This document shows positions 6,658 through 58,601 of a stretch of 64,000 nt of DNA, piece by piece; position 1 is the first letter of the stretch, and every line of letters starts with the position of its first letter. The DNA is from Bacteroidales bacterium (lineage in GTDB: Bacteria; Bacteroidota; Bacteroidia; Bacteroidales; WCHB1-69), in contig JAKSMI010000004.1 in assembly GCA_024400635.1 (NCBI GenBank), positions 22,340 to 86,339 of the forward strand, in the 5' to 3' direction. The position numbers and the translations under genes were made by a program. The notes below the pieces were generated by a model. The model did no database searches. It was not told the DNA's origin and saw only the letters and a list, made by a program, of their open reading frames with translations.

Positions 6658-6717
6658 TATTCCAAAGCAATCTAAAAATACACGATTTTCCACATAACAG
6701 AATTTTTATTATCTTTG
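6580..6717. repeat. 138-bp direct repeat, copy 1 (last 26 codons of the GT-C/TPR gene plus 60 nt downstream)
   Basis: Matches 8633-8770 with 3 mismatches by eye. Includes TATCTTTG at 6710-6717. Confidence 0.9.
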
Positions 6718-6853: not shown

Positions 6854-8599
6854 ATGAATACGCAAGATATAATAAAACTCATAGAGCAAGGCGAAGGTGT
6901 TTCCGTGGAATTTAAAACTGCGAAACACAGTCTTCCTAACAATCTTTTTGAGACTGTTTGCGCATTCTTAAACCACAACGGCGGTCATATCTTGTTAGGC
7001 GTTAAGGATGATGGAACTATTGAAGGCATTCCTTCTGATAACGTTGCTGAAATGTGCAAGGAATTGTCAAACCTAAGCAATAATCCTAATAAAATCGACC
7101 CGCCTTTTTTACTTCAACCGCAAGAATTTGATATAAAAGGCAAAAATGTCATTTACATTTTTGTTCCTTCAAGTTCACAAGTGCATAAAACTTGTGGAAA
7201 AGTGTATGACAGAAGTAGCGATGGTGATTTCGTTCTGAAAAGCCATACGAAAATCTCAGAACTATATCTGAAAAAAAACAATTTCTACAGCGAAAACATC
7301 ATATATCCTTATCTTTACGAAGAACATTTCAAGCCAGGCCTACTTAATAAGGTGAGAAACTTGATACATAGTTTTCATCCAGGACATCCATGGCTGGATT
7401 TGTCAGATAGCGAATTTTACAAGGCTGCTGGTTTATACAGATATGATACTACAAACCACGTAGAAGGCTTTACCCTTGCCGCACTGCTGCTGTTTGGGAA
7501 GGATGAAATCATTCATAGTACATTGCCCTATTACCGAATAGAAGCCATTGTGCGGAAAGAAAATTTGGAGCGATACGATGACCGTATTACGGTAATGTGC
7601 AACTTGATTGACGCCCACGAACAATTGATGGAGTTTATCCGAAAACATTTGCCAGATACTTTCTACATGGAAAAGGATCAGCGCATCTCCATTAGGGAAA
7701 AGCTGTTTAGGGAAATCGTCGCAAACTTGTTGATACATAGAGAGTATTTGAATCCTTCCGTCTCAATGATCACCATCGAAAAGGACAAAGTTTTGGCAGT
7801 CAATGCAAATAAACCACTACATTACGAAAATTTTGAAACCTATAAATACCAATCCTTCCCTAAAAATCCGACTATTGCACTGTTTTTTGTTCAAATAGGA
7901 CGTGCTGAATTTTTGGGAACAGGCATTCGCAACATTGTCAAATACTCAAAAGCTTACGCCCATTCCACTCCAATCTTTGAGGACGACAATATGTTTGAAG
8001 TGAAGATACCGCTTGTTGATGGGGAACAAGTAGGGGAACAAGTAAGGGAACAAGTAAGGGAACAAGTAACGATAATAGAAACAGAATGTGTCATACGGTT
8101 GCTGTCTGTGATTTCTAAAGAACATTCAATCAGTGAACTGATGACTTTATTACAATTGTCTGGAAGACGGAATTTTATTGAAAAATACATTTCTCCAGCC
8201 CTCAAAGATGGCTTGATAGAAATGTCTCAGCCCGACAGTCCCAATAGTCCTACGCAAAAATATCGGCTTACTACCAGAGGGGAACAAGTAAAGGAACAAG
8301 TAGGGGAACAAGTAAGGGAACAAGTAGAGGAACAAGTAGGGGAGCAAGTAACGATAATAGAAACAGAATGTGTCATACGATTGTTGTCTGTGATTTCTAA
8401 AGAACATTCAACTAACGAACTGATGACTTTATTACAATTGTCTGGAAGACGGAATTTTATCGAAAAATACATTTCTCCAGCCCTCAAAGATGGGTTGATA
8501 GAAATGTCTCAGCCTGACAGTCCCAATAGTCCTACGCAAAAATATCGGCTTACGGCTAAGGGGAAACAAATTCAGCAAATAATACTCAACAATGAATAA
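6854..8599 (+). CDS. Schlafen/AlbA_2 domain + HATPase_c_4-like + duplicated wHTH protein (often annotated as RecG-like or putative transcriptional regulator)
   Basis: The N-terminus (GEGVSVEFKTAKHSLPNNLFETVCAFLNHNGGHILLGVKDDGTIEGI) is a typical AlbA_2 signature. REIVANLLIHREY marks the ATPase-like domain. The C-terminal wHTH module is present twice. Confidence 0.7.
   Translation: MNTQDIIKLIEQGEGVSVEFKTAKHSLPNNLFETVCAFLNHNGGHILLGVKDDGTIEGIPSDNVAEMCKELSNLSNNPNKIDPPFLLQPQEFDIKGKNVIYIFVPSSSQVHKTCGKVYDRSSDGDFVLKSHTKISELYLKKNNFYSENIIYPYLYEEHFKPGLLNKVRNLIHSFHPGHPWLDLSDSEFYKAAGLYRYDTTNHVEGFTLAALLLFGKDEIIHSTLPYYRIEAIVRKENLERYDDRITVMCNLIDAHEQLMEFIRKHLPDTFYMEKDQRISIREKLFREIVANLLIHREYLNPSVSMITIEKDKVLAVNANKPLHYENFETYKYQSFPKNPTIALFFVQIGRAEFLGTGIRNIVKYSKAYAHSTPIFEDDNMFEVKIPLVDGEQVGEQVREQVREQVTIIETECVIRLLSVISKEHSISELMTLLQLSGRRNFIEKYISPALKDGLIEMSQPDSPNSPTQKYRLTTRGEQVKEQVGEQVREQVEEQVGEQVTIIETECVIRLLSVISKEHSTNELMTLLQLSGRRNFIEKYISPALKDGLIEMSQPDSPNSPTQKYRLTAKGKQIQQIILNNE
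8021..8560 (+). repeat. In-frame tandem duplication (258 + 282 nt), each copy led by a 12-nt microsatellite
   Basis: Copy 1 (8021-8278) has 4 units of ggggaacaagta-like sequence and copy 2 (8279-8560) has 6 units. The remaining 204-nt module, (TIIETECVIRLL...PTQKYRLT), is nearly identical in both copies. A degenerate third unit start (GKQI) follows. Confidence 0.9.
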
Positions 8600-8632
8600 A
8601 CGGGAAGAGATTTTGAATTTGACATACAAATC

Positions 8633-8770
8633 CCTTACCTACAAGCTTGCCTCAACCAATATCCCCAGTTAAATGGGGCATTGCAAGAATGCATTGCCTT
8701 GAAAAAATAATATTCCAAAGCAATCTAAAAATACACGATTTTCCACATAGCAGAATTTTTATTATCTTTG
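8633..8770. repeat. 138-bp direct repeat, copy 2
   Basis: Matches 6580-6717. It retains an orphan copy of the GT-C/TPR gene's last 26 codons and its stop codon. Confidence 0.9.
8763..8770 (+). promoter_or_regulatory. Bacteroidota-type -7 promoter box (TATCTTTG) inside repeat copy 2
   Basis: Lies 57 nt upstream of the gtrA ATG. An identical box occurs in copy 1 at 6710-6717. Confidence 0.4.
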
Positions 8771-33136: not shown

Positions 33137-34360
33137 CTATAAGGATAAACAATCGTCCAATGCTTGTGTAAGTGCCTGCTTGTCAAGTTGTTGTCCGATG
33201 AATACGATTTTTTGCATTCGGTCTCCGTATTGATCGTCCCAATCGCGGCGGAGTCCGGGTTCCTTTTCCATCATTTCGGCAAGTTCAGAAGGTCTCATTG
33301 TGGCGTACCACAAACCGACATCTTTGAGTGAAAGCTGTTTGCCCGCTTGTTCAAATAGATAGCAACGGTCATATTCATCCCTGAAATAGCAGATACCTTT
33401 GGCACGGATGACATTTTTCGGCAGTGATGACACGAATTCATCAAAGCGTCCCAAGTTAAAAGGACGGCGGCGATAATAAACGAATGTACCGATGCCGTAT
33501 TCTTCAACCTCGCCGCCTTCGTGCTCATGGTCATGATGGTGATGATGATGCTGATGATCGTGTTCTTCCTCCTCGTCTTCATGATGGTGATGGTGTTCAT
33601 GTTCATCATCGTCGTCATCATCGTCGTCGTGATGTTTTTCTATTTCGCGAATCCATGTGGCAGAGGTGGCGACTTTTTCAAAATCGAACATCTTCGTATT
33701 TAAAATCTTATCAAAATCCACATTGCCATAATCGCATTCAATGATTTCTGCCGAGGGTTGCAATGCACGAACGATTTCTTTCAGGCGTCTTAGTTCTGAT
33801 GGAGCGATTTCAGAAGCTTTGTTTAGCAGGACGATATTGCAGAATTCGATTTGTTGGATAACTAAGCGTTCGAGGTCATCATCACCAAGATTCGTTTTTA
33901 ACAAATCATCGCCGCAAGAAAATTCGCTTTGCATGCGTAGAGCATCAACAACGGTTACAACGCAGTCGAGACGAGGAACGCCGTGCTGGATGAAATCCTT
34001 ACCCATCACGGGAATAGAGCAGATGGTCTGTGCGATGGGGTCGGGCTCGCAAATGCCACTGGCTTCAATTATGATGTAGTCGAATCGTTCCATCGCAATG
34101 ATGTCTGTGATTTGCTTGACGAGATCCATTTTCAGCGTACAGCAAATGCAACCATTTTGCAATGCGACCAAGCTGTCGTCGTTTTGGCCGACAATACCGC
34201 CTTTTTGTATTAGGTCCGCATCAATATTCACTTCGCCAATGTCATTGACGATGACCGCAAATTTGATGCCTTGATTGTTGGATAAAATCCTATTCAGCAA
34301 TGTCGTTTTTCCGCTGCCCAAATATCCTGTCAAAAGCAGCACTGGAGTTTCTTTTTTCAT
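33137..34360 (-). CDS. COG0523/CobW-family GTPase metallochaperone with a His/Asp-rich insert
   Basis: GYLGSGKTT P-loop, a CICC metal motif, and an HHDDDDDDDDEHEHHHHHEDEEEEHDHQHHHHHHDHEHE stretch encoded at about 33535-33650. Confidence 0.8.
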   Translation of the reverse strand: MKKETPVLLLTGYLGSGKTTLLNRILSNNQGIKFAVIVNDIGEVNIDADLIQKGGIVGQNDDSLVALQNGCICCTLKMDLVKQITDIIAMERFDYIIIEASGICEPDPIAQTICSIPVMGKDFIQHGVPRLDCVVTVVDALRMQSEFSCGDDLLKTNLGDDDLERLVIQQIEFCNIVLLNKASEIAPSELRRLKEIVRALQPSAEIIECDYGNVDFDKILNTKMFDFEKVATSATWIREIEKHHDDDDDDDDEHEHHHHHEDEEEEHDHQHHHHHHDHEHEGGEVEEYGIGTFVYYRRRPFNLGRFDEFVSSLPKNVIRAKGICYFRDEYDRCYLFEQAGKQLSLKDVGLWYATMRPSELAEMMEKEPGLRRDWDDQYGDRMQKIVFIGQQLDKQALTQALDDCLSL

Positions 34361-40583: not shown

Positions 40584-40710
40584 AATTAATGTATTTTAAC
40601 TTTTTCATATTCTTGATTAATACCTAATTAAAATTTTTAATTACGATAAATAAACAAATGCAATATTACAAAAAAATATGTTTCATTTCTCTTTTGGCGG
40701 ATAATTTTTG

Positions 40711-40718
40711 TACTTTTG
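40711..40718 (+). promoter_or_regulatory. Bacteroidota-type -7 promoter box (TACTTTTG)
   Basis: Lies 23 nt upstream of the ATG at 40741. Confidence 0.45.
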
Positions 40719-40740
40719 CCTTCTCAATAAAATATCCACA

Positions 40741-41241
40741 ATGATATCAATAGATATGAACCAAGAACCCACACTTAACGCCCACAACAAAGACGAATTT
40801 CCGCCAGCGCATACGGCGGAGCATTTGCTGAATCAGACCATGGGAAGAATGTTCGGCTGCGAGCGCAGTCGCAATACCCACGTCGAACGCAAGAAAAGCA
40901 AGATCAACTTCCTCTTGGAACGACCGCTTACGCAAGAAGAAGTGGCTGCCGTGGAGAGCAAAATCAATGAACTCATTGCCGCGGACCTACCCGTAACCTA
41001 CGAGTTTGTCACTCGCGACAATATTCCCGAAGGCGTAACCCTTGCCAAACTTCCAGAGAACGCGAGCGACGCCTTGCGTCTGGTACGCATTGGCGACTAC
41101 GACATTTGCGCCTGCTTAGGCACGCATGTGGCTTCAACCAAGGAAATCGGCACTTTCCGCATCACTTCCACCTCCTGGACACCTCTGGAAACCGGCGGCA
41201 GCTTTAGAATCGTCTTTAGAACTGAAATTAGTGAGCAGTGA
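40741..41241 (+). CDS. AlaX-like tRNA editing domain protein (tRNA_SAD)
   Basis: HTAEHLL and CACLGTHV zinc/editing motifs; 166 aa. Confidence 0.7.
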   Translation: MISIDMNQEPTLNAHNKDEFPPAHTAEHLLNQTMGRMFGCERSRNTHVERKKSKINFLLERPLTQEEVAAVESKINELIAADLPVTYEFVTRDNIPEGVTLAKLPENASDALRLVRIGDYDICACLGTHVASTKEIGTFRITSTSWTPLETGGSFRIVFRTEISEQ

Positions 41242-41332: not shown

Positions 41333-41701
41333 TTAATAAAACAGATGCTGCTTGCTCTTATTTACCCAGCCGGCTTCGTATTTGTAACTCGTGAAATAGA
41401 CTTTGATGTCGGCATCGTATTTATAATCAGTGAAATAAATCTTCTTTTTGGCATCATATTTATAGTCGGTAAAATACCATAAACCTTTGTTGCCTTCAAC
41501 TTCGTATTTGTAATTGCATTTGTAAACGATTAGGTCCGCCTCGTACTTGTACTGCGTTACATATACTTTTACATCAGCATCGTATTTATACTGAGTCGAA
41601 TAAACCAACTGGGCAAAACTCGTTGCCGGTAGGAAGCTGATGAACGTAATCGTCAGTGCTATAATGATTTGTACTAGTTTTCCTTTGAAAATATTATTCA
41701 T
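41333..41701 (-). CDS. Small secreted tandem-repeat protein (YKY[DE]AD repeats; possibly DUF6150-like)
   Basis: ATG at 41701 and a signal peptide ending SFAQ. It has 5-6 repeats of about 13 aa ([ST]xYKY[DE]ADxKVY[FV]) and a C-terminal AGWVNKSKQHLFY. Confidence 0.6.
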   Translation of the reverse strand: MNNIFKGKLVQIIIALTITFISFLPATSFAQLVYSTQYKYDADVKVYVTQYKYEADLIVYKCNYKYEVEGNKGLWYFTDYKYDAKKKIYFTDYKYDADIKVYFTSYKYEAGWVNKSKQHLFY

Positions 41702-41851: not shown

Positions 41852-42769
41852 ATGAAAAAAACGTTGACACTCCTCCTGATAGCCGTACTTTCGTGCGTCC
41901 TTTTCTCTTCATGCAATAAATACGAGGAGTCGATGTATAACAAGTCAAAACATCAGATTCAATATGTCTGGTACAAAAGCAATGTTGGCGATCCTAACGA
42001 AACCTTTACCTATGACAAACATCATTTGCTGACAGACATAACCATCCTTGATACTGCGCATATTGGCGGAGTTCTTGCTGAGAATTATAAGTTTGAATAC
42101 AATAAGGATAAAACCGTTAGTAAAGTTTTTTATACTGATGGTGATTTAGAAGAAACCATTACTTTTGCCTATCTCAACAAGTACGTGAAATATATGTCCT
42201 ATTCCATCAATGGCGAAGTTAGACTATTGTGCAACTTTTATCGTGATGATGAAAAAGCGGCAAAAATCACCCGTATCACAGAGGTTTATGACCATACGTT
42301 TTTCGAAGATATGCATCTCTTGAGTGCCACAAGCCTTTATAATCGTTTTATTGGTAATCTTCAAGAAATGAGAGATTTATCAACATCAATGAATAGTAAG
42401 GCTTTAACTCTATATTGCAATAAGACGGTCACTTATCAGGGTGAGAATGTGGTTTCCCTCGAATCAGAATATCCCGATTTGCTAAAGAAGGTGGTCGTTA
42501 ATTTTTCCTATGCGGATGTCATGAATCCTTATTACGGACTCAATTATGCTTATTCAGACGAACTGCTGGGATTTTCTCGGAACATGCCTGCTGAAAAAAC
42601 AATTTCCACTTATTATGGTGGCAATTTAACAGAATCAGAAATTATTGCCTACGATTACAAAGATGTGAATAAGGACAAATATCCTCGAATGTTCACTTCT
42701 GCGTCAAGCAAGGATGCGGGCATCGCTTTCAAAACATATATCCATTACTTTAGTGAATATCAAGACTAG
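41852..42769 (+). CDS. Lipoprotein of unknown function
   Basis: Signal peptide with a lipobox (LFSSC). No motif recognised. Confidence 0.6.
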   Translation: MKKTLTLLLIAVLSCVLFSSCNKYEESMYNKSKHQIQYVWYKSNVGDPNETFTYDKHHLLTDITILDTAHIGGVLAENYKFEYNKDKTVSKVFYTDGDLEETITFAYLNKYVKYMSYSINGEVRLLCNFYRDDEKAAKITRITEVYDHTFFEDMHLLSATSLYNRFIGNLQEMRDLSTSMNSKALTLYCNKTVTYQGENVVSLESEYPDLLKKVVVNFSYADVMNPYYGLNYAYSDELLGFSRNMPAEKTISTYYGGNLTESEIIAYDYKDVNKDKYPRMFTSASSKDAGIAFKTYIHYFSEYQD

Positions 42770-48300: not shown

Positions 48301-48570
48301 ATTTTTATCTTTGTAAATTATTGAAATTCAAAAATATTCCATTTTACAGGATTGCAAAGGCAAAAATACACATTTATTGCTTATGTATGAATAAGATATC
48401 GTATTTTTTTCAAAGGTGTTTAATGTTAATTGTTTATTGTTTATTTTCCTCGTCCTATATAGGCCCGCACTTCACGGTCGTTATACAGGCGGATGAAGGT
48501 TTTCATTTCAATCTACATTTATTTAGCATTTTGGCGTTAGGATTATATTGTCTATCGGACGTTATCTTTT

Positions 48571-49278
48571 TTATATTCCCCATTTGCTTGATATTTCGCG
48601 ACAGTACTCTTCATGTTGTTGTATGATAGTTGTGTTATCACCATTTGCAACAGCTTTTTCCAATTCGCAAATTATTTCCATTTTATCGCCGTAGGCGGCG
48701 GATCTCTCCGTTTGCAAGGAATCTAAAATGGAGACAACTTGATTTGGGTAGATGACAAACGTATTTTCGGGGATATTGCTGACATCCCGCAATATTGAAG
48801 TTCCGTAAAATACGACAACTGAATAAAATGGGACATCTTTGTTTTTGGTGAAACGTTGCTTCAATGCTTGTATATGCCCATCGTTCTGTTTTACGGGATT
48901 GTAAAACCGGTGTTTTTCCCGCCCGTATGCCAGAACTTGAGTCCATTGCTCCTGATTCCCTTTCCCAAATATCCATCCGCTGTAATCTTTCACTTCAAAA
49001 ACGATGATGCCTGCTTTTGTGGCGACAACAACATCTATTTGAGAATATTTTCCTTCAGTTCTTTTTACATACAGGTCGTGATAAATTGCCTTTGGATGAA
49101 TCCCATGTTTCAACAATTGTAAAACCAAATCCCGCTCCGACCATGTTCCTCTATCCAAGCGGGTGACAGTTGCGAGTAATTTTCTGTCTTCCCTTTTTTG
49201 CTTTATCGTAAGATATATCTTGAAAGATACAGCGATAAGGAGTGCGACAACCGCTACTGTCATTATAATGTCTGTCAT
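48571..49278 (-). CDS. NERD (nuclease-related) domain protein with an N-terminal TM helix
   Basis: A TM helix, then GTWSERDL...YHDLYV...YSQIDVVVATKAGIIVFEVKDYSGWIFG, which is the typical NERD core (D...EVK). Confidence 0.7.
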   Translation of the reverse strand: MTDIIMTVAVVALLIAVSFKIYLTIKQKREDRKLLATVTRLDRGTWSERDLVLQLLKHGIHPKAIYHDLYVKRTEGKYSQIDVVVATKAGIIVFEVKDYSGWIFGKGNQEQWTQVLAYGREKHRFYNPVKQNDGHIQALKQRFTKNKDVPFYSVVVFYGTSILRDVSNIPENTFVIYPNQVVSILDSLQTERSAAYGDKMEIICELEKAVANGDNTTIIQQHEEYCREISSKWGI

Positions 49279-49332
49279 GCTGCAATTTGTGTTTTATAAT
49301 GTACAATGGTTTGTTTTCCTGATTTTTTTTTC

Positions 49333-49367
49333 AATTCTTTCCAATATTTTAAAGATTGGAAAGAATT
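49333..49367. repeat. 35-bp palindromic element, copy 1 (aattctttccaat-N9-attggaaagaatt)
   Basis: 13-bp perfect arms. A near-identical copy lies at 50538-50572. Confidence 0.85.
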
Positions 49368-49436
49368 TTATTTAAAGACCTGCTCCACGTTCCTGCGGTT
49401 GCCGTCGATGGTGATTTGGATTTTATCCTGATTGAA
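49368..49436 (-). pseudogene. Fragment of an ndpA-like 3' region (left half of the split site)
   Basis: Reads FNQDKIQITIDGNRRNVEQ/VFK*. It matches RLDQKIQIIIDGNRENVEQ of the full gene up to the 9-bp core at 49379-49387, then diverges. Confidence 0.65.
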
Positions 49437-50288
49437 TCAAATGGCATCATCGTCTTTCGATTTCTTTTCGCCTTTCAGGGCTTTCTTTTCGTCGCTTTTC
49501 AAACGGCGTTCAACCTTTTTCACATCCTCAGCCGGTGGAAGATTTTCTGGCACGATTCCTCTTTCAATCAGCATTTTCCTAACGGCAAGATTGTTGTCAA
49601 CATGTTCCTTTTCAATGCTTTGCTCGCCCGACAAATCCTTAGCCTGAACATTGACGCTTGTCATTTCGGCTGCAAAATCCTTTGCCTTAATGCTGATTGT
49701 CGGTAGAAAATCGGCTATGGGACGACTATTTGGCACACCCATTTTTCTTTTCAGTTGCTGCGTGGTCAGATGGAACAAGGCTTGGTCGCCTTTCGAGCGG
49801 ATAATGGCAAATCCTTGGTCGTTCACACCTCTTTCATAAAGCACACCCGAAAGCTTCTTTTCCGTTTCCTGCAATTTTGCACGCGCTTTCACACGCTCCG
49901 CTTCCAACAGTCTCTGTTCCACAAGTTCAGCGCGGCGCGTCTGCACGGCAAAATAAGTCTGTGCAAATGCGATTTGCGGTTTCCGAGGGTCTCCGTTTTG
50001 TGCAATAAGATAGCAAGCGTAACGAGTCAGAAGGATGTCATCTATCTCATGCTGAGCACCTTTACCTGCTTCTATCACCTTGCTGACGTCAGCAAAGTGA
50101 TCCGATACTTTATTGCCAGCATTCCGGCATGATTCTTTTGCTTTGTCAACCGCATTCATAAAATTACGCCATTGCGAGTATCCCAAAATCGGATACAATT
50201 CTCTTGCGCTCCAACATTCCACGCCTTCCACCTCGGCCGCAGCCTGCTCAAACTGCTCAAACAACTGTTTTACTTCTTCTGTTTTCAT
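49437..50288 (-). CDS. dinD: DNA damage-inducible protein D
   Basis: [18 protein letters not shown]...[33 protein letters not shown] closely parallels E. coli DinD. ATG at 50288 (MKTEE) is conserved in the duplicated fragment; the track start at 50309 is GTG. Confidence 0.8.
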
Positions 50289-50367
50289 ATTTATTTTGAT
50301 TTGGTTCACATTTCTTGCCGGTAATACACCTTATAGAACTTGCCCCTTTCGTCCTCGCCCTGCTCCA
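50225..50367. repeat. 143-bp direct repeat, copy A (ndpA 3' end, spacer and the first 21 codons of dinD)
   Basis: Aligns with 52575-52717 at about 90 percent identity (about 14 mismatches by eye, mostly in the 17-nt spacer). Confidence 0.85.
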
Positions 50368-50524
50368 TCACATTGAATGGGCGAGGATAGCCATTGAAAT
50401 ACAGCCAATTCTGTTTAAGGAGGGGAACATCGCTGCTCAATTTTCCCCTAACGTCCGTTGTTATCGCCATCTTGGTAATATTGTATGATTGGTTCTGCAA
50501 AAATATCCAATGTTTTATCTTCAT
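50306..50524 (-). pseudogene. Chimeric ORF whose last 20 codons are an ndpA 3' end (right half of the split site)
   Basis: The C-terminus ([19 protein letters not shown]) equals the end of the full gene. The upstream 52 aa are unrelated. Confidence 0.6.
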
Positions 50525-50537
50525 TTTATTTCACTCC

Positions 50538-50572
50538 AATTCTTTCCAATGTTTTAAAGATTGGAAAGAATT
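50538..50572. repeat. 35-bp palindromic element, copy 2
   Basis: Has the same 13-bp arms as 49333-49367. The loop differs at one position. Confidence 0.85.
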
Positions 50573-50630
50573 TATGTGCTTTTCAATTTACAATTTATAA
50601 TGAACACTGTGCAATGGTTTGAGCTTACGA

Positions 50631-51356
50631 TTACCAATTTATATTGTTTTCCAACGCCTCAACGTATTTTTTGTACAGGCAGATGAAAATTTCGTCAATT
50701 AATATCAAAATGGCAAAACGAAAGAAATAATTATGATAGATGTAATCGGAACTTGCTAATGTATCAAGTGTTGGTAAGTTTTGTTGATATGATGTTAGGT
50801 TATGGGCACAACGGTTGCGGTGCTTATAAACAATTTCATCGTATGATTTATGTAGGTCGGATTGAAATAGTATGTAAGTATCTTTTTGTTTTTGTTTGAT
50901 CTGATTATCCTTTAATATTGTGTTGTTTGACTTAAAATATGAGAAACTTTCTTGTTGAGCGGCTCGTAACAGATTGGGATTGTCTAAAATATTAAGAACT
51001 ATATTTTTAACGTCCTTAACATTTGCTGTAATAACATCTATATCGAACTGGGGGATTCGTTTGATTAAATCTTTATATATGTTGTTCTTACTACAATAAT
51101 CAGAATGCTCTCCGTAATTCTTATTATTCAGATATTCATACCGATACTCATAATCATTCGTGGCCATTTCCCAGCATATACACTTCATTTTTTGCTCTTG
51201 CGCACCTGTCATTTTTAAGAAAACCGATTGCATAATGTAATCGCACAATGGATATGTTTCAATACCGCTTCCAATACCTCGGATGGCATTAACACTATCT
51301 TCCAAAATCTTTGAGAGAGGCGTTGTTATGAATTTATAATGCTGGCTCTTGTACAT
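50631..51356 (-). CDS. HEPN-like protein (R-x4-H motif)
   Basis: KHRNRCAHN (RNRCAH = R-x4-H) lies in an alpha-helical protein of 241 aa. ATG at 51356 overlaps the DUF262 stop by 23 nt; the track start at 51395 is TTG. Confidence 0.55.
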   Translation of the reverse strand: MYKSQHYKFITTPLSKILEDSVNAIRGIGSGIETYPLCDYIMQSVFLKMTGAQEQKMKCICWEMATNDYEYRYEYLNNKNYGEHSDYCSKNNIYKDLIKRIPQFDIDVITANVKDVKNIVLNILDNPNLLRAAQQESFSYFKSNNTILKDNQIKQKQKDTYILFQSDLHKSYDEIVYKHRNRCAHNLTSYQQNLPTLDTLASSDYIYHNYFFRFAILILIDEIFICLYKKYVEALENNINW

Positions 51357-52542
51357 AGTCTTTGTAGATATTGATTGATGCTTTGATTCTCTCAACAGTA
51401 TATTTTAGAGCGTTTGGTGCTCGCTTATGGGCCTCTGATTTAAAATTGGCATCATTGATTTTATTCTTAATAGCAGAATCGAGATCATCCTTGTTTGTAA
51501 TATCAATAGTTTTCCCCTTAATAATAACATAGTAAATCAACCCGAGTAAATACATGTCGGCATCAATGATTGTGTTAAAGTCCTTTGGTATTGATAAATT
51601 GTTTAACGCTGACCTTAGTGCGTCAAGTCTGCTCGTAATATCATTATCTGGATTAGGAAAAACAAATGTTATTGCTGGGAATTTTTGGTGGTCTTTTTTC
51701 TCTTCCACAATAGTTGTAATAAATTCAGAAAAATATTCTTCTCGTTTTCTGCCATAGCCATAAGCCACTTTTGTAGTATTGGGATCATTTAATTTACAAA
51801 AATCAAAAAGATATGCCAAATAACGCACAAAGTCAGGATTTTTAGGTTCTGAATTTTGCATAATTGTAATACTCTTAAGAACACCTGAATCCAATAATTT
51901 CGTGTACTTTCCATTTAGGAAATATAATGCTCGGCGGCTCTCCTCTGGTAGCAATACTTTTCCTAATGTATTGATGTGCTTAAAAATACGTGAATAATAT
52001 TTTTGTTGTTCGTTTTGGTCTGAAGTGTTAGATACGATATAAGAGAATCCTAAAAAAGTATCTTCCAAAACCTCATCAGAAATTGTCTCCGCTAGATCAT
52101 CATATCGGTCGTCAGTTGCTATCTTTTGTCTTATGTTTTCTATATTCTTGCCCATCCCTAACAATTCATCAAATCTCCATTCCAAAATAGTTTTGTCTTC
52201 ACCTTCCGAGTCCATTCCATCATCACCCTCAGCAAGAGAATTTTCTTTTAATTTGAATTTTCCTGCATTAGGATACTTTTTTATACAAGCAAGGAGAATA
52301 CTTGTTAGGCGTTGTTGCCCATCAATGATGTAATTGTGCGTTTTGCCATCGCTTGCGGTAAAAGCACCTATTGTAATAGGCGGGACAAAGTCTTTATCTC
52401 TCAAAGACTGAATTAGTTTTTTTATACTTTCCTGATTCCAACAAAACTTCCTTTGATAACGCGGTAATTCAATATTGCCACTCAACATTAAACCAATCCA
52501 ATGTTTTAGTGAGTATTCTCCATAATAAACTCTATTTTTCAT
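51334..52542 (-). CDS. DUF262 (ParB/Srx-like) protein without a DUF1524/HNH domain
   Basis: ELPRYQRKFCW and IIDGQQRLTS hallmark motifs. The C-terminal roughly 200 aa were not recognised and no H-N-H motif was seen. ATG at 52542; the track start at 52548 is TTG. Confidence 0.7.
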   Translation of the reverse strand: MKNRVYYGEYSLKHWIGLMLSGNIELPRYQRKFCWNQESIKKLIQSLRDKDFVPPITIGAFTASDGKTHNYIIDGQQRLTSILLACIKKYPNAGKFKLKENSLAEGDDGMDSEGEDKTILEWRFDELLGMGKNIENIRQKIATDDRYDDLAETISDEVLEDTFLGFSYIVSNTSDQNEQQKYYSRIFKHINTLGKVLLPEESRRALYFLNGKYTKLLDSGVLKSITIMQNSEPKNPDFVRYLAYLFDFCKLNDPNTTKVAYGYGRKREEYFSEFITTIVEEKKDHQKFPAITFVFPNPDNDITSRLDALRSALNNLSIPKDFNTIIDADMYLLGLIYYVIIKGKTIDITNKDDLDSAIKNKINDANFKSEAHKRAPNALKYTVERIKASINIYKDYVQEPAL

Positions 52543-52554
52543 ATTCAATCCTCC

Positions 52555-52638
52555 TTAATTATTCATTGTTAATTCTTCCACCTCGGCGGCGGCTTGTTCA
52601 AACTGCTCAAACAACTGTTTTATTTCTTCTGTTTTCAT
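52555..52638 (-). pseudogene. 5' fragment of a second dinD copy
   Basis: [21 protein letters not shown] matches the first 21 codons of dinD. Then comes the unrelated ELTMNN*. Confidence 0.75.
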
Positions 52639-52717
52639 ATTTATGCTGTCTTAATTTACATTTCCTGCTGGTAATACACCTTATAGAACTTGCCCCTTTC
52701 GTCCTCGCCCTGCTCCA
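52575..52717. repeat. 143-bp direct repeat, copy B
   Basis: See copy A at 50225-50367. Confidence 0.85.
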
Positions 52718-53696
52718 CGTTCTCGCGGTTGCCGTCGATGATGATTTGGATTTTCTGGTCCAATCGAATGACACGCTTGTAGCTGCGTTGTTGCTTCTTG
52801 CGTGCCGATTCAGAAATGGTAAATTGGTCATCAATGGCGATTTGGCTTTCTTCTTCGTATGCGCGCTTGTACAGATGGAATTTTTCAATCACCTCTGGCT
52901 GTTCGATGACTTCGTTGGCAAACTCCTCAATGTCGAAAGTGTCCTTTTCCTTGAAAAACTTTAATGACTTGTTAAGCAGGTCGATTTGGTCGGCTTTAGT
53001 TACCTCAAATTCGTTAGGCAGTTCCTTTGTGACAAAATCCTTTGCAAAAGTCATGAAATTCTGCGTGTTGGCGTATTCGTCTTTACGCTGGCGCACGTGC
53101 AGGAAATCGTCCACCCAATATTGCGCTTCAATGCCTTTGTTGGTATTATCAACTACCGCCACGACATAACCGTTTTCCTTTTCCTTATTGAAAATCAGGC
53201 AGCCTTTATCCAATTTCTTGATATTGATGCCTTTTTCGCTTTCCAAATTGAAACTGTTGTTTTCGTGCAGCACCTTGAGGAAAGTGTCTTTGTTTTCCGA
53301 CTTGAACAAGCCGACCGCATCCATTGTTTCGCCATCCAAAATGCAATCCTTGAAATAGACGGTATAAAACTCACCGCCTTTGATTTTCGGATGTGTGCTT
53401 TGTTCGTAAAGATGCTTTGCCAGATTCACCGACTGATCATATAGCGCATCGGGATTGTCGAAAATACGGGAAACGTAGGTGTAAACAGCGTTAAGTTCAA
53501 GCTCGCTTTCGTGAAAAAATTCGAAATATTCGTTGGTGGTGAAAGGTGAGATATAATATAATAATAAAAGGTCTTTTAATCTATCATCTATATTTACAAA
53601 TGTATTAGATAATATTATTCCATCATCCGCAACTTTATTTCCGACAAAATGTAATGTAACATTTTGAATTTTTGATTCCAAGAATATTGCACTCAT
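52656..53696 (-). CDS. Nucleoid-associated protein, NdpA/YejK (NA37) family-like
   Basis: 346 aa. The N-terminus (IQNVTLHFVGNK) and overall pattern fit my memory of Bacteroidota NA37-family proteins. Its start overlaps the upstream stop codon as ATGA. Confidence 0.6.
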   Translation of the reverse strand: MSAIFLESKIQNVTLHFVGNKVADDGIILSNTFVNIDDRLKDLLLLYYISPFTTNEYFEFFHESELELNAVYTYVSRIFDNPDALYDQSVNLAKHLYEQSTHPKIKGGEFYTVYFKDCILDGETMDAVGLFKSENKDTFLKVLHENNSFNLESEKGINIKKLDKGCLIFNKEKENGYVVAVVDNTNKGIEAQYWVDDFLHVRQRKDEYANTQNFMTFAKDFVTKELPNEFEVTKADQIDLLNKSLKFFKEKDTFDIEEFANEVIEQPEVIEKFHLYKRAYEEESQIAIDDQFTISESARKKQQRSYKRVIRLDQKIQIIIDGNRENVEQGEDERGKFYKVYYQQEM

Positions 53697-54832
53697 CGTT
53701 TTTGCTGTTTTAAGTATTCCAAAAAGTTGTTATATACAACATTTTTTTGTCTATCCATCTCTGAAAGCAATTTTGATTTCAGTTTGTTTTTATCAGTTGT
53801 GCTTAGTCTTTTTTCTGAACTTAATTGTGAAATATTCATTTCAAATTCAGCATTACCAAATTTGTTAGGATAATCCGGAAAGCCTAAACTGATAGTAAAT
53901 TTACCTTTTTCTCCCCTGTAATTATATGAAAATACGGCATCCATATTCCATAGAATAATGGAATTATGATATTTGGTATCTTTCATAAAAAACTTATCAT
54001 TCAATGATTCTCCAGACAACAGAATCTTTTTCATTTTATCCATCCAAATAATTTCTTCAGGAAGGGCTGAATTATCATCCGGTTTGATTGAAATATCCTT
54101 TATGTTTTCGCAAGTAAAGTTGTCATTTTCTAAATGAGTTGTCAACCGGTAAAAAAACGCGAATCTCTCATTATTTGAAAATTCAGAAAAAATAATTTTC
54201 TTTAGTTTTGCATCTTGCGCAACAATTCCTTTCTCTTTAAATTTTTGAATTTGTTGTTTAATAATTTGTTCTGCAATCTCTTTCGTTTCTGGCGCAGTAT
54301 GAGTTATTTTAATATGTCCCTTACCATTCTCATTAATAATTTCGACTTTCCCTGGAAATTCATTTTTCTGCTCATACCATGATTTATTTCTATCATAGCG
54401 AATAATTGTAAAGTCAGCAATTAAGTGTTCTGGATTGTTGTCAACTTTCGTAAAACGAGTTGGATACTTTAATTCACAAGAAGGCAAGTTTTTCTTTAAG
54501 AAATCATTAATATCAACATTATTACAATCAGGGTGAAACAATGTTGCATTTGGATTAAATTCTATTTCTCTTGAAAACTTTTTTTCATTATCTTCTCTCT
54601 CAGATAACGACAATCTCACTTCTTCAAATTCTTTGGGCGACAATAAAAGTGTTTGCAGAATAGGTACGGTGTATGATTTGTCGTTATTAAGTGCAAATAC
54701 TCCACGTTCTTTTAATATCCGGTGTATTTCCGCATTAGAAATAGAACTCTGGTTAACAAAACCTCGGAGCATTTCTCCAAAAGGCAACATCTTATCAATA
54801 TCGTTTTGACTTACATTCATATTAATACACAT
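53693..54832 (-). CDS. Hypothetical protein, 379 aa, no recognisable domain
   Basis: A long ORF, AT-rich and Lys/Asn-rich. ATG at 54832 overlaps the upstream gene by 11 nt; the alternative ATG at 54820 lies 1 nt after its stop. Confidence 0.6.
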   Translation of the reverse strand: MCINMNVSQNDIDKMLPFGEMLRGFVNQSSISNAEIHRILKERGVFALNNDKSYTVPILQTLLLSPKEFEEVRLSLSEREDNEKKFSREIEFNPNATLFHPDCNNVDINDFLKKNLPSCELKYPTRFTKVDNNPEHLIADFTIIRYDRNKSWYEQKNEFPGKVEIINENGKGHIKITHTAPETKEIAEQIIKQQIQKFKEKGIVAQDAKLKKIIFSEFSNNERFAFFYRLTTHLENDNFTCENIKDISIKPDDNSALPEEIIWMDKMKKILLSGESLNDKFFMKDTKYHNSIILWNMDAVFSYNYRGEKGKFTISLGFPDYPNKFGNAEFEMNISQLSSEKRLSTTDKNKLKSKLLSEMDRQKNVVYNNFLEYLKQQKR

Positions 54833-55754
54833 TTAAAAGATTTCTGTAATTCTCCACGGTAACAGTTTTTGTAAATTCATTATCCTGAAAACCTTGTTTC
54901 GATTCTGCTACAATGTTTTTATGCAACAAATTATTATAATCTGGGAAAGCTATAATCACATCTCCTACCCAATTTGATGATATATCTTTTGCTAGTCCCA
55001 TTAAACGTTTCAGGTCTGCGGCTTCAAAATTATCTATACTTGCCAATAACAAAGCTATTTCTTTTTCGTTGCTCTTTTTCATCAACTTTATTGGAATGAT
55101 ACTTGAATTCAGATATTCAACAGGAAGGATTGAGCCTGTATTATTCCTGTTTTGTGGATTTAAATTTTGACCTGTTGCTGGATAATAAAAGAAATAGTTA
55201 TATTCTGTTTTTGATTTGATATAACTCATCACTTCTAAGATAAAACCAACTCGTTTGTTATCCATGATATAAATAGTATTATTCTTGAAAGAATCAATTC
55301 GTACAGTTGACACTGCATTAATTAAATCATCATAACCATCTTCGCTATTATTCAACCAAAATAGTACTCCAACATCATTAATTGTTGTTGGATGAAAGTT
55401 GGGTATTATTGAATCTTTTTGCGGAGAACAATCAAAACATTCAATAGTGTTAATTAAGTCCAGCATATACTTTTTAAAAGTACTTTGTGGACTATTGGGA
55501 TATTTATCATTACTATATTTTGATGATATTACGATATTGTTTAATTGTCCATCAACAAGAGGATTCATGTAGGAATATAAGAAATCTATCCCATGTGTTC
55601 TTGCTGGTTCTCCTTTAGAATTTAAATGTTCCCCATTCTGTTGAGAGCAATCAATTTGAATTCCTTTTGCCAAATCTGACCATCCTATTACGGATAAGAA
55701 TCTTTCGACGACAGATTCTCCGTATTCTCCTATTTTTTTAGACCATTCACCCAT
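54822..55754 (-). CDS. Hypothetical protein, 310 aa, possible PD-(D/E)xK-like N-terminal core
   Basis: GEYGESVVERFLSVIGW...HGIDFLYS...NIVISSKY resembles a nuclease-fold G-x-x-GE ... D ... (E/S)xK arrangement. This is weak evidence, read by eye only. Confidence 0.55.
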   Translation of the reverse strand: MGEWSKKIGEYGESVVERFLSVIGWSDLAKGIQIDCSQQNGEHLNSKGEPARTHGIDFLYSYMNPLVDGQLNNIVISSKYSNDKYPNSPQSTFKKYMLDLINTIECFDCSPQKDSIIPNFHPTTINDVGVLFWLNNSEDGYDDLINAVSTVRIDSFKNNTIYIMDNKRVGFILEVMSYIKSKTEYNYFFYYPATGQNLNPQNRNNTGSILPVEYLNSSIIPIKLMKKSNEKEIALLLASIDNFEAADLKRLMGLAKDISSNWVGDVIIAFPDYNNLLHKNIVAESKQGFQDNEFTKTVTVENYRNLLNVY

Positions 55755-55795: not shown

Positions 55796-58237
55796 TTATT
55801 TCCCAATTCTTTCCACATACCTTTTCAGCATCTCCATTTCCTTGCGTTTCATATAGTTTTCCATGAAAACATAGTCCGGCTCGCCTTTGGAATTTACTGG
55901 AAGCATGATAGTAAACGAATTTAAGCGATTTGAATTTATTGAATGTCCGTGCCCGAAAAACTCTTCTTGCATGGAAATGCAACGAGACAAAAACACCTGT
56001 ATGTGCTTTGACAGTTCTTGTTTAGGATACAAAGCCGTAACATGACTATCTAACGCAAAATCAAATGGCTGGTAGTAGGCTAAACCTGCACCACCGTCAC
56101 CATCATTGTTGAGAGTGACACAATGTCCCTGATACAAATTTTGTGTCTCAACAAAAGACCTCAAACCATTATTCACTTTTCTTGCAGAAACCAAAGGCAC
56201 ATCTCCATCTTGCAAAGAATTCATATCTGTTTGATTTCCTTTATTCGGAGTGAACAATTTTATTAATCTAAAAGGTTTCCATTCTTTATTATCAATTCGT
56301 TCTATTTTCGGCAATTCACCAATTCGTTCCCTTCTTTCTGAATTATCAAACAAATACCCGCGTCCGTGGGCAATCATGTTAAACTCAAAAGTGAGGTAGT
56401 CGGCCATTGTCTTTTCAAAGTCGGCTTCGGTCGGGATGTCCTCGTTGAAATAATAGAACGAATGCAGCCATTCATCTTCGGCTTCAACGGTGGAAGTCAC
56501 CATGAAGTCGTTGGTGGTATGCCTGCCCATCAGCCAACATTCCAACAAAAGTTTCTTGCGCTCCTTGGCTTGCTCGGTCGGCAGCAGCCCCAAATGCGGA
56601 AACACCACAAAGCCGTCATCCTTAAAGTTAATGAACTTACTGTATTTGTTTTTCGGGTGCGGACGATGAGCGGTGAAAACGGCAATCACGGGATTGGTGC
56701 CAACGCCGTAGAAAGTCTGAGGATTCAAGGTTATCACGCCTTCCAAAGTATGGTTTTCCAGAATATAGCGTTTGTCGATTTTGTCTTCCTTGGTTTTACC
56801 TACCATAGTGCTTTGTGGCACAATCACCACGCAACGTGCGCCATCGGCCAACGAATCAAGCAAATGGCAGATGAATTTCAATTCCGTAAGTTCGGCTGTC
56901 GTTTTGTTTTTGCCTTGCGAATAAGGCGGATTCATGAAACCGACGGTGAAGTTTTTCTTTCGCAGTTCCTCGGCTGGCTGTTTCAGAAAATCGGCACAAA
57001 TCAGATTGCTTTTTCCATCGCCGCGCAAAATCATGTTGGTTGTGGCAATCGAAAACATATCGTCACGCAACTCAATGCCATGCAAACGCTCTTTCTTTAT
57101 GGTGTGCTGTTCGTCGCGGCTCGCATTTTTCAACATTCGGTGCATGGCCGAAATCAGGAAGCCGCCCGTGCCGCAACAAGGGTCAAAGACTTTGTCGGTC
57201 GGTTTCAAATCGGCTAAATCGACAAAAAGCTCCGTAATGTGTTTCGGTGTCAGCACAACGCCCAATGTCTGTCCGTCGCCACCACTGTAACGGATAAACT
57301 CGCCATAGAAACGCCCCAAGACATCTTCAGGCGAATTGTTGCAAATGGCGGTGAGGATATTAGAATAAAGATATTCAGCAAAATAACGCAATGGTGACTT
57401 GCCCAATTTGGAACTGAACTCCGATAAATGCGGACGGTTTTTTATCAGTCGGAACTGGTCGAGAACCTTTTCCTTTTTCACTTGCGGCTGAACGTGAACG
57501 CTGTCCATGTGTTTTGAAAGGGCATCAAAAATTTTGTCGCCGTCAGTCTCTCCGTTTTCCCGCGAAGCGGTCAGTTGCTCAGTGTCGAAATTCTGTTCCT
57601 GCAAGGCAAGCAAGATGGCAGACACCACCAAAGGTTTTTCCGAATCGCCCAACTGTCCGTAATTGCGCAAATCCTCATGCAGTTGTCCGGCACGTTTCAG
57701 AATCACTTCCAATTCCGCCTGTTCCACAGTCTTGCTGCCCAAGACCTCAGTGCGATAATAATTGGTGATTTTTTCAGCCGTAAAATTCTCAAAACTCTTT
57801 ACTTTTTTGAGAATCTGATAGCCGTTCTCACTCACGAAAATAGGACGAATGATGATTCTTTCATCCTGCGTGCCCGAACAGCCAAAGGCAAAGACCTTTT
57901 TGAAATGCGTCTTTTCAATGATGTTCAGGGCATAATGCAAGGCACCGTTTTCTGCATAGTTAGTCACGCTTGATGTGTCCATTAGAAGCGTGTCCTCTCT
58001 TTCGTTCATGTATTTTGCCTGCTTCGTCTGGTCGGCCTTATCCTCGATGACGATGATAAACTCGCCAGATTGAGCGACAAATTCAGGGAATCCGGTTTTG
58101 CCCGTTCCTCGTTTCGAAGACGTTTTGAGGGCTTCATTGATTTCCTCAATCTGGCTGCCATTCATCGTAAAATCGAGGCCAGCCTTTGTGAGCAATTGCG
58201 CCACAATGAAATCGGTTTTCTTCTCGTAGTCAGTCAT
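55796..58237 (-). CDS. Single-chain restriction-modification enzyme, Type IIG/IIB-like (nuclease-like N-domain + N6-adenine methyltransferase + HsdS-like TRD)
   Basis: The N-terminus (GFPEFVAQSGEFIIVIEDKAD) has a PE...ExK pattern. FDPCCGTGGF is SAM motif I and FMNPPY is motif IV. The C-terminal roughly 190 aa look like a TRD. ATG at 58237; the track start at 58240 is GTG. Confidence 0.7.
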   Translation of the reverse strand: MTDYEKKTDFIVAQLLTKAGLDFTMNGSQIEEINEALKTSSKRGTGKTGFPEFVAQSGEFIIVIEDKADQTKQAKYMNEREDTLLMDTSSVTNYAENGALHYALNIIEKTHFKKVFAFGCSGTQDERIIIRPIFVSENGYQILKKVKSFENFTAEKITNYYRTEVLGSKTVEQAELEVILKRAGQLHEDLRNYGQLGDSEKPLVVSAILLALQEQNFDTEQLTASRENGETDGDKIFDALSKHMDSVHVQPQVKKEKVLDQFRLIKNRPHLSEFSSKLGKSPLRYFAEYLYSNILTAICNNSPEDVLGRFYGEFIRYSGGDGQTLGVVLTPKHITELFVDLADLKPTDKVFDPCCGTGGFLISAMHRMLKNASRDEQHTIKKERLHGIELRDDMFSIATTNMILRGDGKSNLICADFLKQPAEELRKKNFTVGFMNPPYSQGKNKTTAELTELKFICHLLDSLADGARCVVIVPQSTMVGKTKEDKIDKRYILENHTLEGVITLNPQTFYGVGTNPVIAVFTAHRPHPKNKYSKFINFKDDGFVVFPHLGLLPTEQAKERKKLLLECWLMGRHTTNDFMVTSTVEAEDEWLHSFYYFNEDIPTEADFEKTMADYLTFEFNMIAHGRGYLFDNSERRERIGELPKIERIDNKEWKPFRLIKLFTPNKGNQTDMNSLQDGDVPLVSARKVNNGLRSFVETQNLYQGHCVTLNNDGDGGAGLAYYQPFDFALDSHVTALYPKQELSKHIQVFLSRCISMQEEFFGHGHSINSNRLNSFTIMLPVNSKGEPDYVFMENYMKRKEMEMLKRYVERIGK

Positions 58238-58601
58238 CACTTTACCTTATTATCTATGTTTCAATCTTACAAAACGTCAGCGGCATAAAACCCGCTTAAA
58301 TATTTTGATTATTTTCGTTTAAAAAGTTGCGTATATCATTGATTACAAGTGCTTTTTTTAGTGCATAAAACCAAACGACCAACAGTCTCTAACACGCGCA
58401 ACTTGGCTGCAAAGTTCGCAAAATTTCCTGACATCTGTAAGAGATTCTCTAAAAAATTATCAACAGGCATGGGATATAAGTTGCCGGTCGGTTTTAAAAC
58501 TTGTGAAAGTTAAAATTTTTCTTTACATTTTACGTGATATATTATTTTTATTTCTATTTTTTCAGTCAAATTAACAATTACATATTCAGTTAATGAAAAC
58601 C

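Follow-up and report, generated by a model that had tools for sequence, protein, structure and literature searches.

Diverged direct repeats at an ndpA–dinD junction suggest homology-anchored stacking of defence modules in an uncultured Bacteroidales bacterium

We analyzed 64,000 nt of a Bacteroidales genome (GTDB lineage WCHB1-69; GenBank assembly GCA_024400635.1, contig JAKSMI010000004.1, positions 22,340 to 86,339 of the forward strand; hereafter the window), in which two diverged direct repeats bracket a cassette of defence-type genes at the junction between an NA37/NdpA-like gene (ndpA) and dinD, the gene of DNA damage-inducible protein D. The repeats are distinct alleles, representing the ndpA–dinD junctions of two different lineages, and we favour, with a probability of roughly 0.55, the explanation that they were joined by homology-anchored stacking of defence modules. 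Besides the two alleles, we observed a haplotype switch inside ndpA, the separate occurrence of the cassette and of the dinD block in other genomes, and several orphan fragments in the locus. The locus is best read as a well-preserved and fairly ordinary example of defence-island growth without transposase or integrase, a known kind of recombination-driven mosaic.

A repeat search of the window returned an ungapped pair of 143 nt with 90% identity and a spacing of 2350 (X and X′, Table 1), exactly the pair that a first-pass annotation of this DNA had described as 143-bp direct repeats of about 90% identity. On the minus strand, each copy comprises the last ~20 codons of ndpA with the stop codon, followed by 17 nt of spacer and by the initial 64 nt of dinD (21 codons), again as described. 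Pairwise alignment showed the copies to be in register, with similarity dropping abruptly at both edges. Identity along the repeat was uneven, a perfect 60-nt block (TGGAGCAGG...TATTACC) being followed by a stretch in which 69/83 nt matched. At the end of X, a dead open reading frame of 27 codons (ORF, 52555–52638) consists of the 21 dinD codons and ELTMNN*, and terminates just ahead of the ribosome-binding region of the DUF262 gene, the first gene of the cassette. The first-pass annotation had likewise recognized this dead stub and placed the cassette at the ndpA–dinD junction, where dinD is interrupted at codon 22. Target-site duplications of transposons are short (2–15 bp) and identical, and are accompanied by terminal inverted repeats and a transposase. 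The pair found here measures 143 nt at 90% identity, the repeat search revealed no terminal inverted repeats at the insert ends, and domain annotation of the proteins in 40.7–64 kb of the window yielded neither integrase nor transposase. Transposon insertion was thus ruled out, as the first-pass annotation had also concluded from the length and divergence of the repeats.

X and X′ differ at 14 positions, and an alignment with other genomes showed that at 10 or more of these both states are present in other lineages. The dinD part of the upper stub (TTTGAACAAGCCGCCGCCG) corresponds, with 1 mismatch, to the functional dinD allele of contig L136, and the dinD 5′ part of the lower copy (TTTGAGCAGGCTGCGGCCG) is identical (0 mismatches) to that of L002. 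The spacer of the upper copy resembles those of L002 and L133, and the spacer of the lower copy that of L003. Furthermore, the divergence between X and X′ (90% identity) is close to that between the dinD genes of the window and L136 (92.9%). Because the differences are polymorphisms shared with other lineages, X and X′ are two pre-existing alleles of one junction. A duplication in situ, in which 143 nt were doubled upon insertion, as a very long target duplication or a local tandem one, and then accumulated 10% divergence, would account for the intactness of both flanking genes, as after a staggered cut, and for the presence of two cases of ~142 nt in one window. However, private mutations would not give a pattern of shared polymorphisms, so the repeats do not appear to stem from duplication at insertion. 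In addition, 10% of local divergence is too much given that the adjacent 3.6 kb are 100% identical to a sister strain, and we know of no mechanism that gives a 140-bp target duplication. We therefore regard such a duplication as barely credible.

The sister strain is represented by L133, a Logan contig from a different sample (run SRR21151047). Its Type IIG restriction-modification, GAPS4a, GAPS4b and NA37 proteins are 98%, 100%, 100% and 99% identical to those of the window, and identity then falls to 74% for the DUF262 protein and 77% for its partner protein, downstream of which L133 continues with a short motif, M, and a Fic gene. At the nucleotide level, identity is 100% from ~56400 to 52831, and mismatches begin at 52830. 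Nine of them fall in the final 175 nt of ndpA (52656–52830; ~95% identity), which represent a different haplotype from the rest of the gene, and through the cassette identity is 64–92%. The switch at 52830/52831 thus indicates a crossover inside the 3′ part of ndpA, with the ndpA tail inherited together with the downstream cargo. Upstream of ~56400, within the Type IIG restriction-modification gene (56400–58240), identity falls from 100% to 90–98%. The 3.6-kb block of complete identity is therefore bounded on both sides, indicating that the block itself is a recombination tract.

Both the cassette and the dinD block were found separately in other genomes. The cassette, composed of the DUF262 gene, its Rx4H partner and Fic, lies directly after era in four contigs (L129–L132), with a full-length Fic gene in L132 and a stub of 35 codons in L129. 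At the era loci, in L133 and in L136 no repeats flank it, so that it appears to be independent of ndpA/dinD homology. The 5′ leader of the DUF262 gene (AATTAACAATGAATAATTAA) starts at ~52574 in the window, is common to L133 and has a similar counterpart in L129. Motif M directly precedes the ATG of Fic in L132, L133 and L136. In the window, a partial second copy (M′, 49283–49313) stands ahead of the NERD gene, and the whole stretch from the first hairpin (hp1) to NERD sits between the M of the cassette and a Fic 5′ stub.

The dinD block has its counterpart in L136, where the gene order is Type I S subunit, OLD-like ATPase, dinD, 12 nt, an ndpA fragment (Y), hairpin, M, Fic and der. The dinD-Y-hairpin-M block of the window is colinear with this arrangement (92.9% identity over 1009 nt), and Fic takes directly the position held by NERD in the window. 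All 80 of 80 metagenomic dinD homologs (73–84% amino acid identity) lack ndpA upstream. As dinD is thus free-standing cargo in many contexts, ndpA–dinD is not a general module, and elsewhere the gene downstream of ndpA is RhuM (six loci), DUF3990, AAA_21 or others. Among close relatives, however, remnants of dinD persist: between ndpA and the cassette leader, L133 retains ~25 nt of a decayed dinD start followed by unrelated sequence, and L003 (ndpA 86% identical) retains ~20 nt, followed by a REase-ARP nuclease. These remnants of different length indicate that the ndpA–dinD junction is ancestral in the clade and that at least three separate breaks, each at a different point, have disrupted dinD. 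The empty site proposed for comparison by the first-pass annotation, ndpA followed by an uninterrupted dinD, was absent from 47 ndpA loci, 80 metagenomic dinD loci and the results of exact-protein look-ups with ndpA, dinD, DUF262 and GAPS4a, which retrieved only the same strain or L133. L002 contains ndpA, the spacer and 54 nt of dinD, and is not a proven empty site because the contig ends 10 nt short of the breakpoint at +64.

Orphan 3′ fragments of ndpA constitute a further line of evidence. Two are located in the window, namely the tail within X′ (50306–50367) and Y′, which starts 12 nt past the dinD stop codon. In L048, a third stub follows a different OLD-family gene, starts from the same base as Y and runs through the stop codon, with the same hairpin 36 nt further on. 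Y in L136 measures 37 nt, is 100% identical to the intact ndpA of the window and ends 9 nt earlier than Y′, whose end is the same 9 nt (TGGAGCAGG) as the beginning of X′. An extension of the Y′ stub into the 3′ end of dinD, which would make the dinD stop codon ndpA-derived, was rejected (p = 0.2–0.6 against shuffles). No local duplicates of the ndpA tail occurred in 42 other ndpA loci. A strict scan of all fetched loci found the hairpin nowhere but in the window (twice) and L048, a more diverged copy being present in L136. Folding of hp1 gave –16.6 kcal/mol (z = –5.1; –4.5 to –5.1 for the hairpins overall). Although the hairpin lacks a U-tract on the coding strand, it presumably acts as a terminator.

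Upstream of the tail in X′ lies the orphan segment P, whose joint with the 9-nt core is abrupt and which forms ORF72 together with the NdpA C-terminal tail. A tblastn match reaching residues 11–71 made ORF72 a candidate for the C-terminus of a diverged second ndpA. This candidate was discarded, since its first 52 residues, at –2 bits against a profile built from 31 NA37 homologs, did not do better than 500 shuffled sequences, and the description of an ndpA stub fused to an unrelated ORF therefore holds in this respect. P itself did not significantly resemble ndpA, dinD, the flanks of the hairpin or any of the fetched loci. The idea that it is a degenerated version of the hairpin/M region or the L048 spacer was rejected because local alignments were no better than shuffles. 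Among 1.8 billion representatives, an ORF72 homolog was the sole match to the 53 amino acids encoded by P apart from two eukaryote-like repeat proteins of low complexity. ORF72-like proteins with the same P/tail junction occur in other assemblies (P0361, on an 87-kb NCBI MAG contig, P0364, P0366, P0367), and the frame is open in at least five distinct sequences (66–72 amino acids, 77–97% identity). The junction is therefore an older one and not a fresh scar; for ORF72 itself, both a neutral scar and a genuine small gene ahead of dinD are conceivable.

The fragments might also be understood as attL, attI and attR sites left by site-specific integrative elements at the ndpA 3′ end, through tandem accretion as in cis-mobilizable elements (CIME-like), with TGGAGCAGG as the core. 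Classically, such elements integrate at the 3′ ends of genes and supply a replacement tail. The identity of the 9 nt at the X′ beginning and the Y′ end would fit this idea, as would the recurrence of ndpA 3′ stubs beside one hairpin in the unrelated context of L048, starting at the same base. Yet no integrase is encoded in 40.7–64 kb of the window or on the L048, L133 and L136 contigs, X′ and Y′ have only these 9 nt in common, and local tail duplicates were absent from the 42 other ndpA loci tested. A role of TGGAGCAGG as crossover core is weakened by three observations: the Y stub behind dinD in L136 stops 9 nt short of the Y′ end and lacks the core; the Y′/hairpin junction is lineage-specific, in contrast to the old and widespread P/core junction, which argues for separate events; and two random breakpoints in a target of ~120 nt would, by our estimate, fall within 9 nt of each other in ~15% of cases. 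We consider this origin quite unlikely. Integrons possess an IntI integrase, an attI site and attC hairpins at the 3′ ends of their cassettes. Hairpins do end two units here, but an integron cassette array was rejected given the lack of an integrase, the nature of the copies as simple palindromes of 97% identity, and the absence of a hairpin after NERD. Very unlikely, too, is the notion that the ndpA tail and the conserved hairpin form a dedicated, recombinase-independent or trans-acting, integron-like capture site for defence genes in Bacteroidales, with units ending in the hairpin and with ORF72 functioning as a small protein alongside DinD instead of being a scar.

We thus return to the stacking of modules. 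In such a process, the conserved upstream block of Type IIG restriction-modification gene, GAPS4a, GAPS4b and ndpA would serve as the recombination anchor. Incoming DNA carrying its own ndpA 3′ end and new cargo would cross over inside ndpA, and its far end would be joined, without the help of homology, within the resident ndpA tail or directly behind it, so that the resident tail and its cargo would be shifted downstream instead of being replaced. The newest module would comprise the ndpA 3′ end, the dinD stub, DUF262, the Rx4H protein and M, and behind it would lie the older module of P, ndpA tail, dinD, Y′ and hairpin, followed by NERD and the Fic stub. One round of displacement may have left Y′ behind dinD and another the tail in X′ behind hp1 and P, and the upper stub may date from an event before both, in which the cassette entered dinD at codon 22 in the donor lineage. 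Two features expected of displacement were found, a crossover in the upstream anchor (52830/52831) and orphaned 3′ fragments of the anchor that are kept with older cargo. The order of events is our inference, and the non-homologous joints presumably arose by homology-facilitated illegitimate recombination rather than from a circular intermediate.

Several points weigh against sequential displacement. The recipient state it predicts (ndpA, intact dinD, Y′, hairpin) was not recovered in the genomes searched, and a perfect 60-nt block at one repeat end would also be expected from a single crossover with a circle. ORF72, being conserved and old, could be a small gene in its own right and no scar. 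Moreover, the succession M/hp1/P/X′ was seen only in this assembly, whereas the junction types other than M/hp1/P were confirmed in independent samples, and the assembly is probably a metagenome-assembled genome (MAG), because the source run (SRR17543913) has >560,000 Logan contigs.

The single crossover with a circle deserves closer consideration. In a Campbell-type event, a 2.35-kb circle carrying P, the 143-nt junction, DUF262, its partner, M and hp1 would have recombined once with the resident junction inside the 60-nt block. Such an event fits the repeat geometry as well as displacement does: both repeats are equal in extent, sharp-edged and in register, and 60 perfect nt followed by 83 diverged nt are what one would expect of a crossover within the block that left one remainder each from donor and recipient. 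A pair of repeats around an AlbA_2 gene in the same window has the same layout, with a perfect core of 102 nt. However, neither a circle junction nor an empty site turned up among the assembled sequences searched, and the cassette stands without flanking repeats at the era loci, in L133 and in L136. Since a circle carrying the junction presupposes an earlier copy of the same structure, it would explain the spread of the arrangement and not its origin, and it leaves Y′, the second hairpin and the Fic stub unaccounted for. The 60-nt block, moreover, encodes the conserved NdpA C-terminus and is identical in L133 too, so that purifying selection could explain its perfection. On balance we regard integration of a circle as unlikely. 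Of the two mechanisms put forward in the first-pass annotation, recombination between diverged ndpA–dinD modules thus agrees with the shared polymorphisms and the L133 haplotype switch; Campbell integration would be the less likely of the two.

An artefact of assembly was weighed as well, in which two strains, or a chromosome and a small element, would have been joined via the 60-nt block or the hairpins. The source appears metagenomic, and the Logan contigs L001, L134 and L135 from the same run all break inside the repeats. Breaks at an exact 60-nt repeat are, however, expected in a k = 31 graph and are no sign of error. L001 independently confirms the junction from X to DUF262, L133, from another sample, confirms the succession of ndpA, stub and cassette, and L136 that of dinD, Y, hairpin and M; the P/tail junction is confirmed by the ORF72 homologs in other assemblies. 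Some molecule must, moreover, contain the unique segment P in physical linkage with the 60-nt block. We deem a misassembly very unlikely.

In defence-island hotspots of Vibrio, E. coli and Pseudomonas pangenomes, variable cargo lies between conserved flanks and strains exchange alleles via flanking homology, which gives mosaic identity. Most of the hotspot turnover that has been described is clean replacement. At the present locus, by contrast, the replaced module appears to be retained, leaving diverged direct repeats and stubs that would record the order of events. Like a Campbell integration, the locus displays two equal direct repeats flanking the insert and both neighbouring genes intact, but we found no circular form and no replication or integration function, and the repeats are diverged alleles. 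A closer parallel is offered by the C-terminal (sequential) displacement arrays of Rhs, contact-dependent inhibition (CDI) and type VI secretion system (T6SS) effector–immunity loci, where a constant upstream gene is followed by strings of orphaned 3′ pieces and displaced cargo, attributed to homology-facilitated illegitimate recombination (Jackson 2009; Kirchberger 2017, PMC5361080). Common to both are the upstream homology anchor, modules that bring their own anchor 3′ end, older modules that keep an orphan piece, and the lack of an encoded recombinase. In the window, however, the anchor is an NA37/NdpA-like gene ending a GAPS4 operon and not a polymorphic toxin, the putatively displaced cargo consists of stand-alone defence-type genes (dinD, the DUF262 pair, NERD, Fic) instead of immunity genes, and the duplication also reaches into the beginning of the gene that follows. 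For homology-facilitated illegitimate recombination, PMC5361080 refers to experimental demonstrations with microhomologies of 3–10 nt (de Vries and Wackernagel 2002; Prudhomme 2002; Meier and Wackernagel 2003). As in that process, which can duplicate or delete recipient sequence near the anchor, the locus combines one homologous crossover (ndpA, ~52830) with one joint without homology (P/TGGAGCAGG). Unlike the experiments in transformable bacteria, our case is read from the sequence of an uncultured Bacteroidales organism.

If this interpretation holds, fragments of sequence would keep a stepwise record of module gain without any mobile-element enzyme, with the end gene of a GAPS4 operon as the landing pad, and the displacement logic of polymorphic-toxin loci would also apply to the anti-phage islands of Bacteroidales from gut and rumen that have not been cultured. 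Further events of this presumed mechanism could be sought with the hairpin, orphan tails of ndpA and stubs of gene starts as markers. Two putative associations are also worth flagging, NA37 with GAPS4 and the DUF262-Rx4H-Fic trio, although neither will surprise a specialist.

Table 1 Features of the defence island, listed from high to low coordinates (window positions)
Feature	Position	Strand	Remarks
Type IIG restriction-modification enzyme	55796–58240	minus	left edge of island; Pfam N6_Mtase + Methylase_S; PADLOC REase_MTase_IIG E = 8.9e-173
GAPS4a	54822–55754	minus	product 100% identical to that of L133 gene annotated PF26115 PDDEXK_GAPS4
GAPS4b	53693–54820	minus	product 100% identical to that of L133 gene annotated PF26110 GAPS4b_N
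NA37/NdpA-like gene (ndpA)	52656–53696	minus	conserved anchor; Pfam NA37 E = 1.9e-33
Upper repeat X	52575–52717	minus	ndpA tail, 17-nt spacer, dinD codons 1–21
DUF262 protein	51334–52542	minus	first cassette gene; Pfam GmrSD_N E = 6.5e-23; best PADLOC match NsnA E = 5.9e-16
Partner protein (Rx4H)	50631–51356	minus	241 amino acids, all-alpha; invariant RNRCAHN motif
Motif M	50591–50621	minus	31 nt; in relatives the region immediately upstream of the Fic start, here cut off from Fic
Hairpin hp1	50537–50573	.	37 nt, 13-bp stem, 9-nt loop; 97% identical to hp2
Segment P	50368–50536	minus	orphan 169 nt; N-terminal 52 codons of ORF72
ORF72	50306–50524	minus	fusion of P with NdpA C-terminal tail; annotated as protein
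Lower repeat X′	50225–50367	minus	putatively displaced ndpA tail, spacer, 5′ end of intact dinD
dinD (DNA damage-inducible protein D, Bro-N)	49437–50288	minus	intact; Pfam Bro-N E = 2.5e-11; PADLOC PDC-S13 E = 2e-120
Y′, second orphan ndpA fragment	49379–49424	minus	codons ~314–328; 46 nt, 93% identical to 52709–52754
Hairpin hp2	49332–49368	.	followed by M′ (49283–49313)
NERD-domain protein	48571–49278	minus	between M′ and Fic start region; Pfam NERD E = 1.2e-27
Fic (Bro-N/Fic) 5′ stub	48441–48506	minus	21 codons + upstream ~16 nt; 81–84% identical to Fic start in L132, L133, L136

The island spans 48.3–58.3 kb between the conserved-looking neighbours DUF389 and DUF6261. On the minus strand, from high to low coordinates, it contains the Type IIG restriction-modification gene, GAPS4a, GAPS4b, NA37/ndpA, the dinD stub, DUF262, the 241-residue partner and M, followed by hp1, P, the ndpA tail with dinD, Y′, hp2, M′, NERD and the Fic 5′ stub. 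Of these, Y′, the paired hairpin, the repeated motif M and the Fic stub had gone unnoticed in the first-pass annotation. GAPS4, a published two-gene anti-phage DNase system (bioRxiv 10.1101/2025.09.07.674715), was recognized by the adjacency of GAPS4a (PD-(D/E)xK) and GAPS4b, the assignment relying on precomputed annotations of L133. The start of ndpA overlaps the stop of GAPS4b by 4 nt, and GAPS4a, GAPS4b and the NA37/NdpA-like gene form one tight operon in the window (52656–55754, minus strand) as well as in L012, L015, L016 and L133. The trio recurs in Treponema and Campylobacter MAGs with 67–70% identity for ndpA and 23–63% for the two GAPS4 proteins. In the close relative L003, ndpA has other upstream partners, DUF6731 and a membrane protein. 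NA37 goes unmentioned in the GAPS4 preprint, where the system consists of two genes (bioRxiv 10.1101/2025.09.07.674715); it may be a third gene of some GAPS4 systems. In a clade of ndpA genes with 72–76% identity (L006–L010, L031), an ORF of 322–330 codons follows ndpA after 7–10 nt, and its L007 copy matches Pfam Virulence_RhuM (E = 3.6e-106), a family which, like DinD, is often embedded in restriction-modification loci.

The assignment of dinD agrees with the names given by NCBI to members of its 90%-identity cluster, to which MCQ2318567.1 and MCQ2315789.1 belong, and the L136 protein is 97% identical to it. In plasmid and phage collections, dinD alone found matches. The Fic proteins of L132 and L136 match Pfam Fic.

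GmrSD-type restriction enzymes combine an N-terminal DUF262 domain with a C-terminal DUF1524 HNH-type nuclease. In the DUF262 protein of the cassette, the GmrSD_N match covers residues 24–210 and Pfam revealed no nuclease domain in the C-terminal half; with GmrSD_N only, classification as a GmrSD-type enzyme was rejected. Members of the HEPN superfamily carry an Rx4-6H motif in an all-alpha four-helix core. The partner protein had been labelled HEPN in the first-pass annotation, a label to which its RNRCAHN motif and an all-helical AlphaFold2 model (pLDDT, predicted local distance difference test, 81) lend some plausibility. R180, A184, H185 and N186 are invariant in 44 sequences. The label was backed neither by Pfam or PADLOC, which gave no match (Pfam domain in 0/120 listed homologs), nor by Foldseek against the PDB, where no match fell below E = 1, and we therefore call the protein HEPN-like by motif only. 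Together, the genes for DUF262, the Rx4H protein and Fic have the appearance of a conserved module of three.

The window contains one other repeat pair of comparable size (6576–6717 and 8629–8770; 142 nt, 97% identity, 4 mismatches, 102-nt perfect core). Each copy consists of the last 82 nt of a TPR/PMT_2 gene and 60 nt downstream, and the pair flanks an AlbA_2/Schlafen-HATPase_c_4-Fic-like_C gene (6854–8599) located between the TPR/PMT_2 gene and GtrA. Its layout is the same as that of the 143-nt locus, as the first-pass annotation had remarked, although the repeats measure 142 nt and not 138. No empty site was found, a GtrA look-up giving only the same-sample Logan contig L135, which begins within the right copy. 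Inside the AlbA_2 gene lies a tandem duplication of 276 nt (8021–8578, 91% identity), the copies of which are headed by runs of the 12-nt unit GGGAACAAGTAA. In the 1-kb gap after an aminotransferase gene, a 32-residue fragment (2858–2953) with 56% identity to AlbA_2 residues 363–394 suggests a decayed paralog. Two further repeat regions were noted. Overlapping repeats in a 9-nt phase, rich in CATGAT/GATGGT (33508–33636), lie inside a minus-strand ORF (33137–34360) and probably encode a His/Asp-rich low-complexity stretch. Between the ORFs 40708–41241 and 41852–42769, four copies of a 67-nt unit (41373–41604; 39/87-nt spacing, 64–76% identity) possibly represent a short-repeat protein motif.

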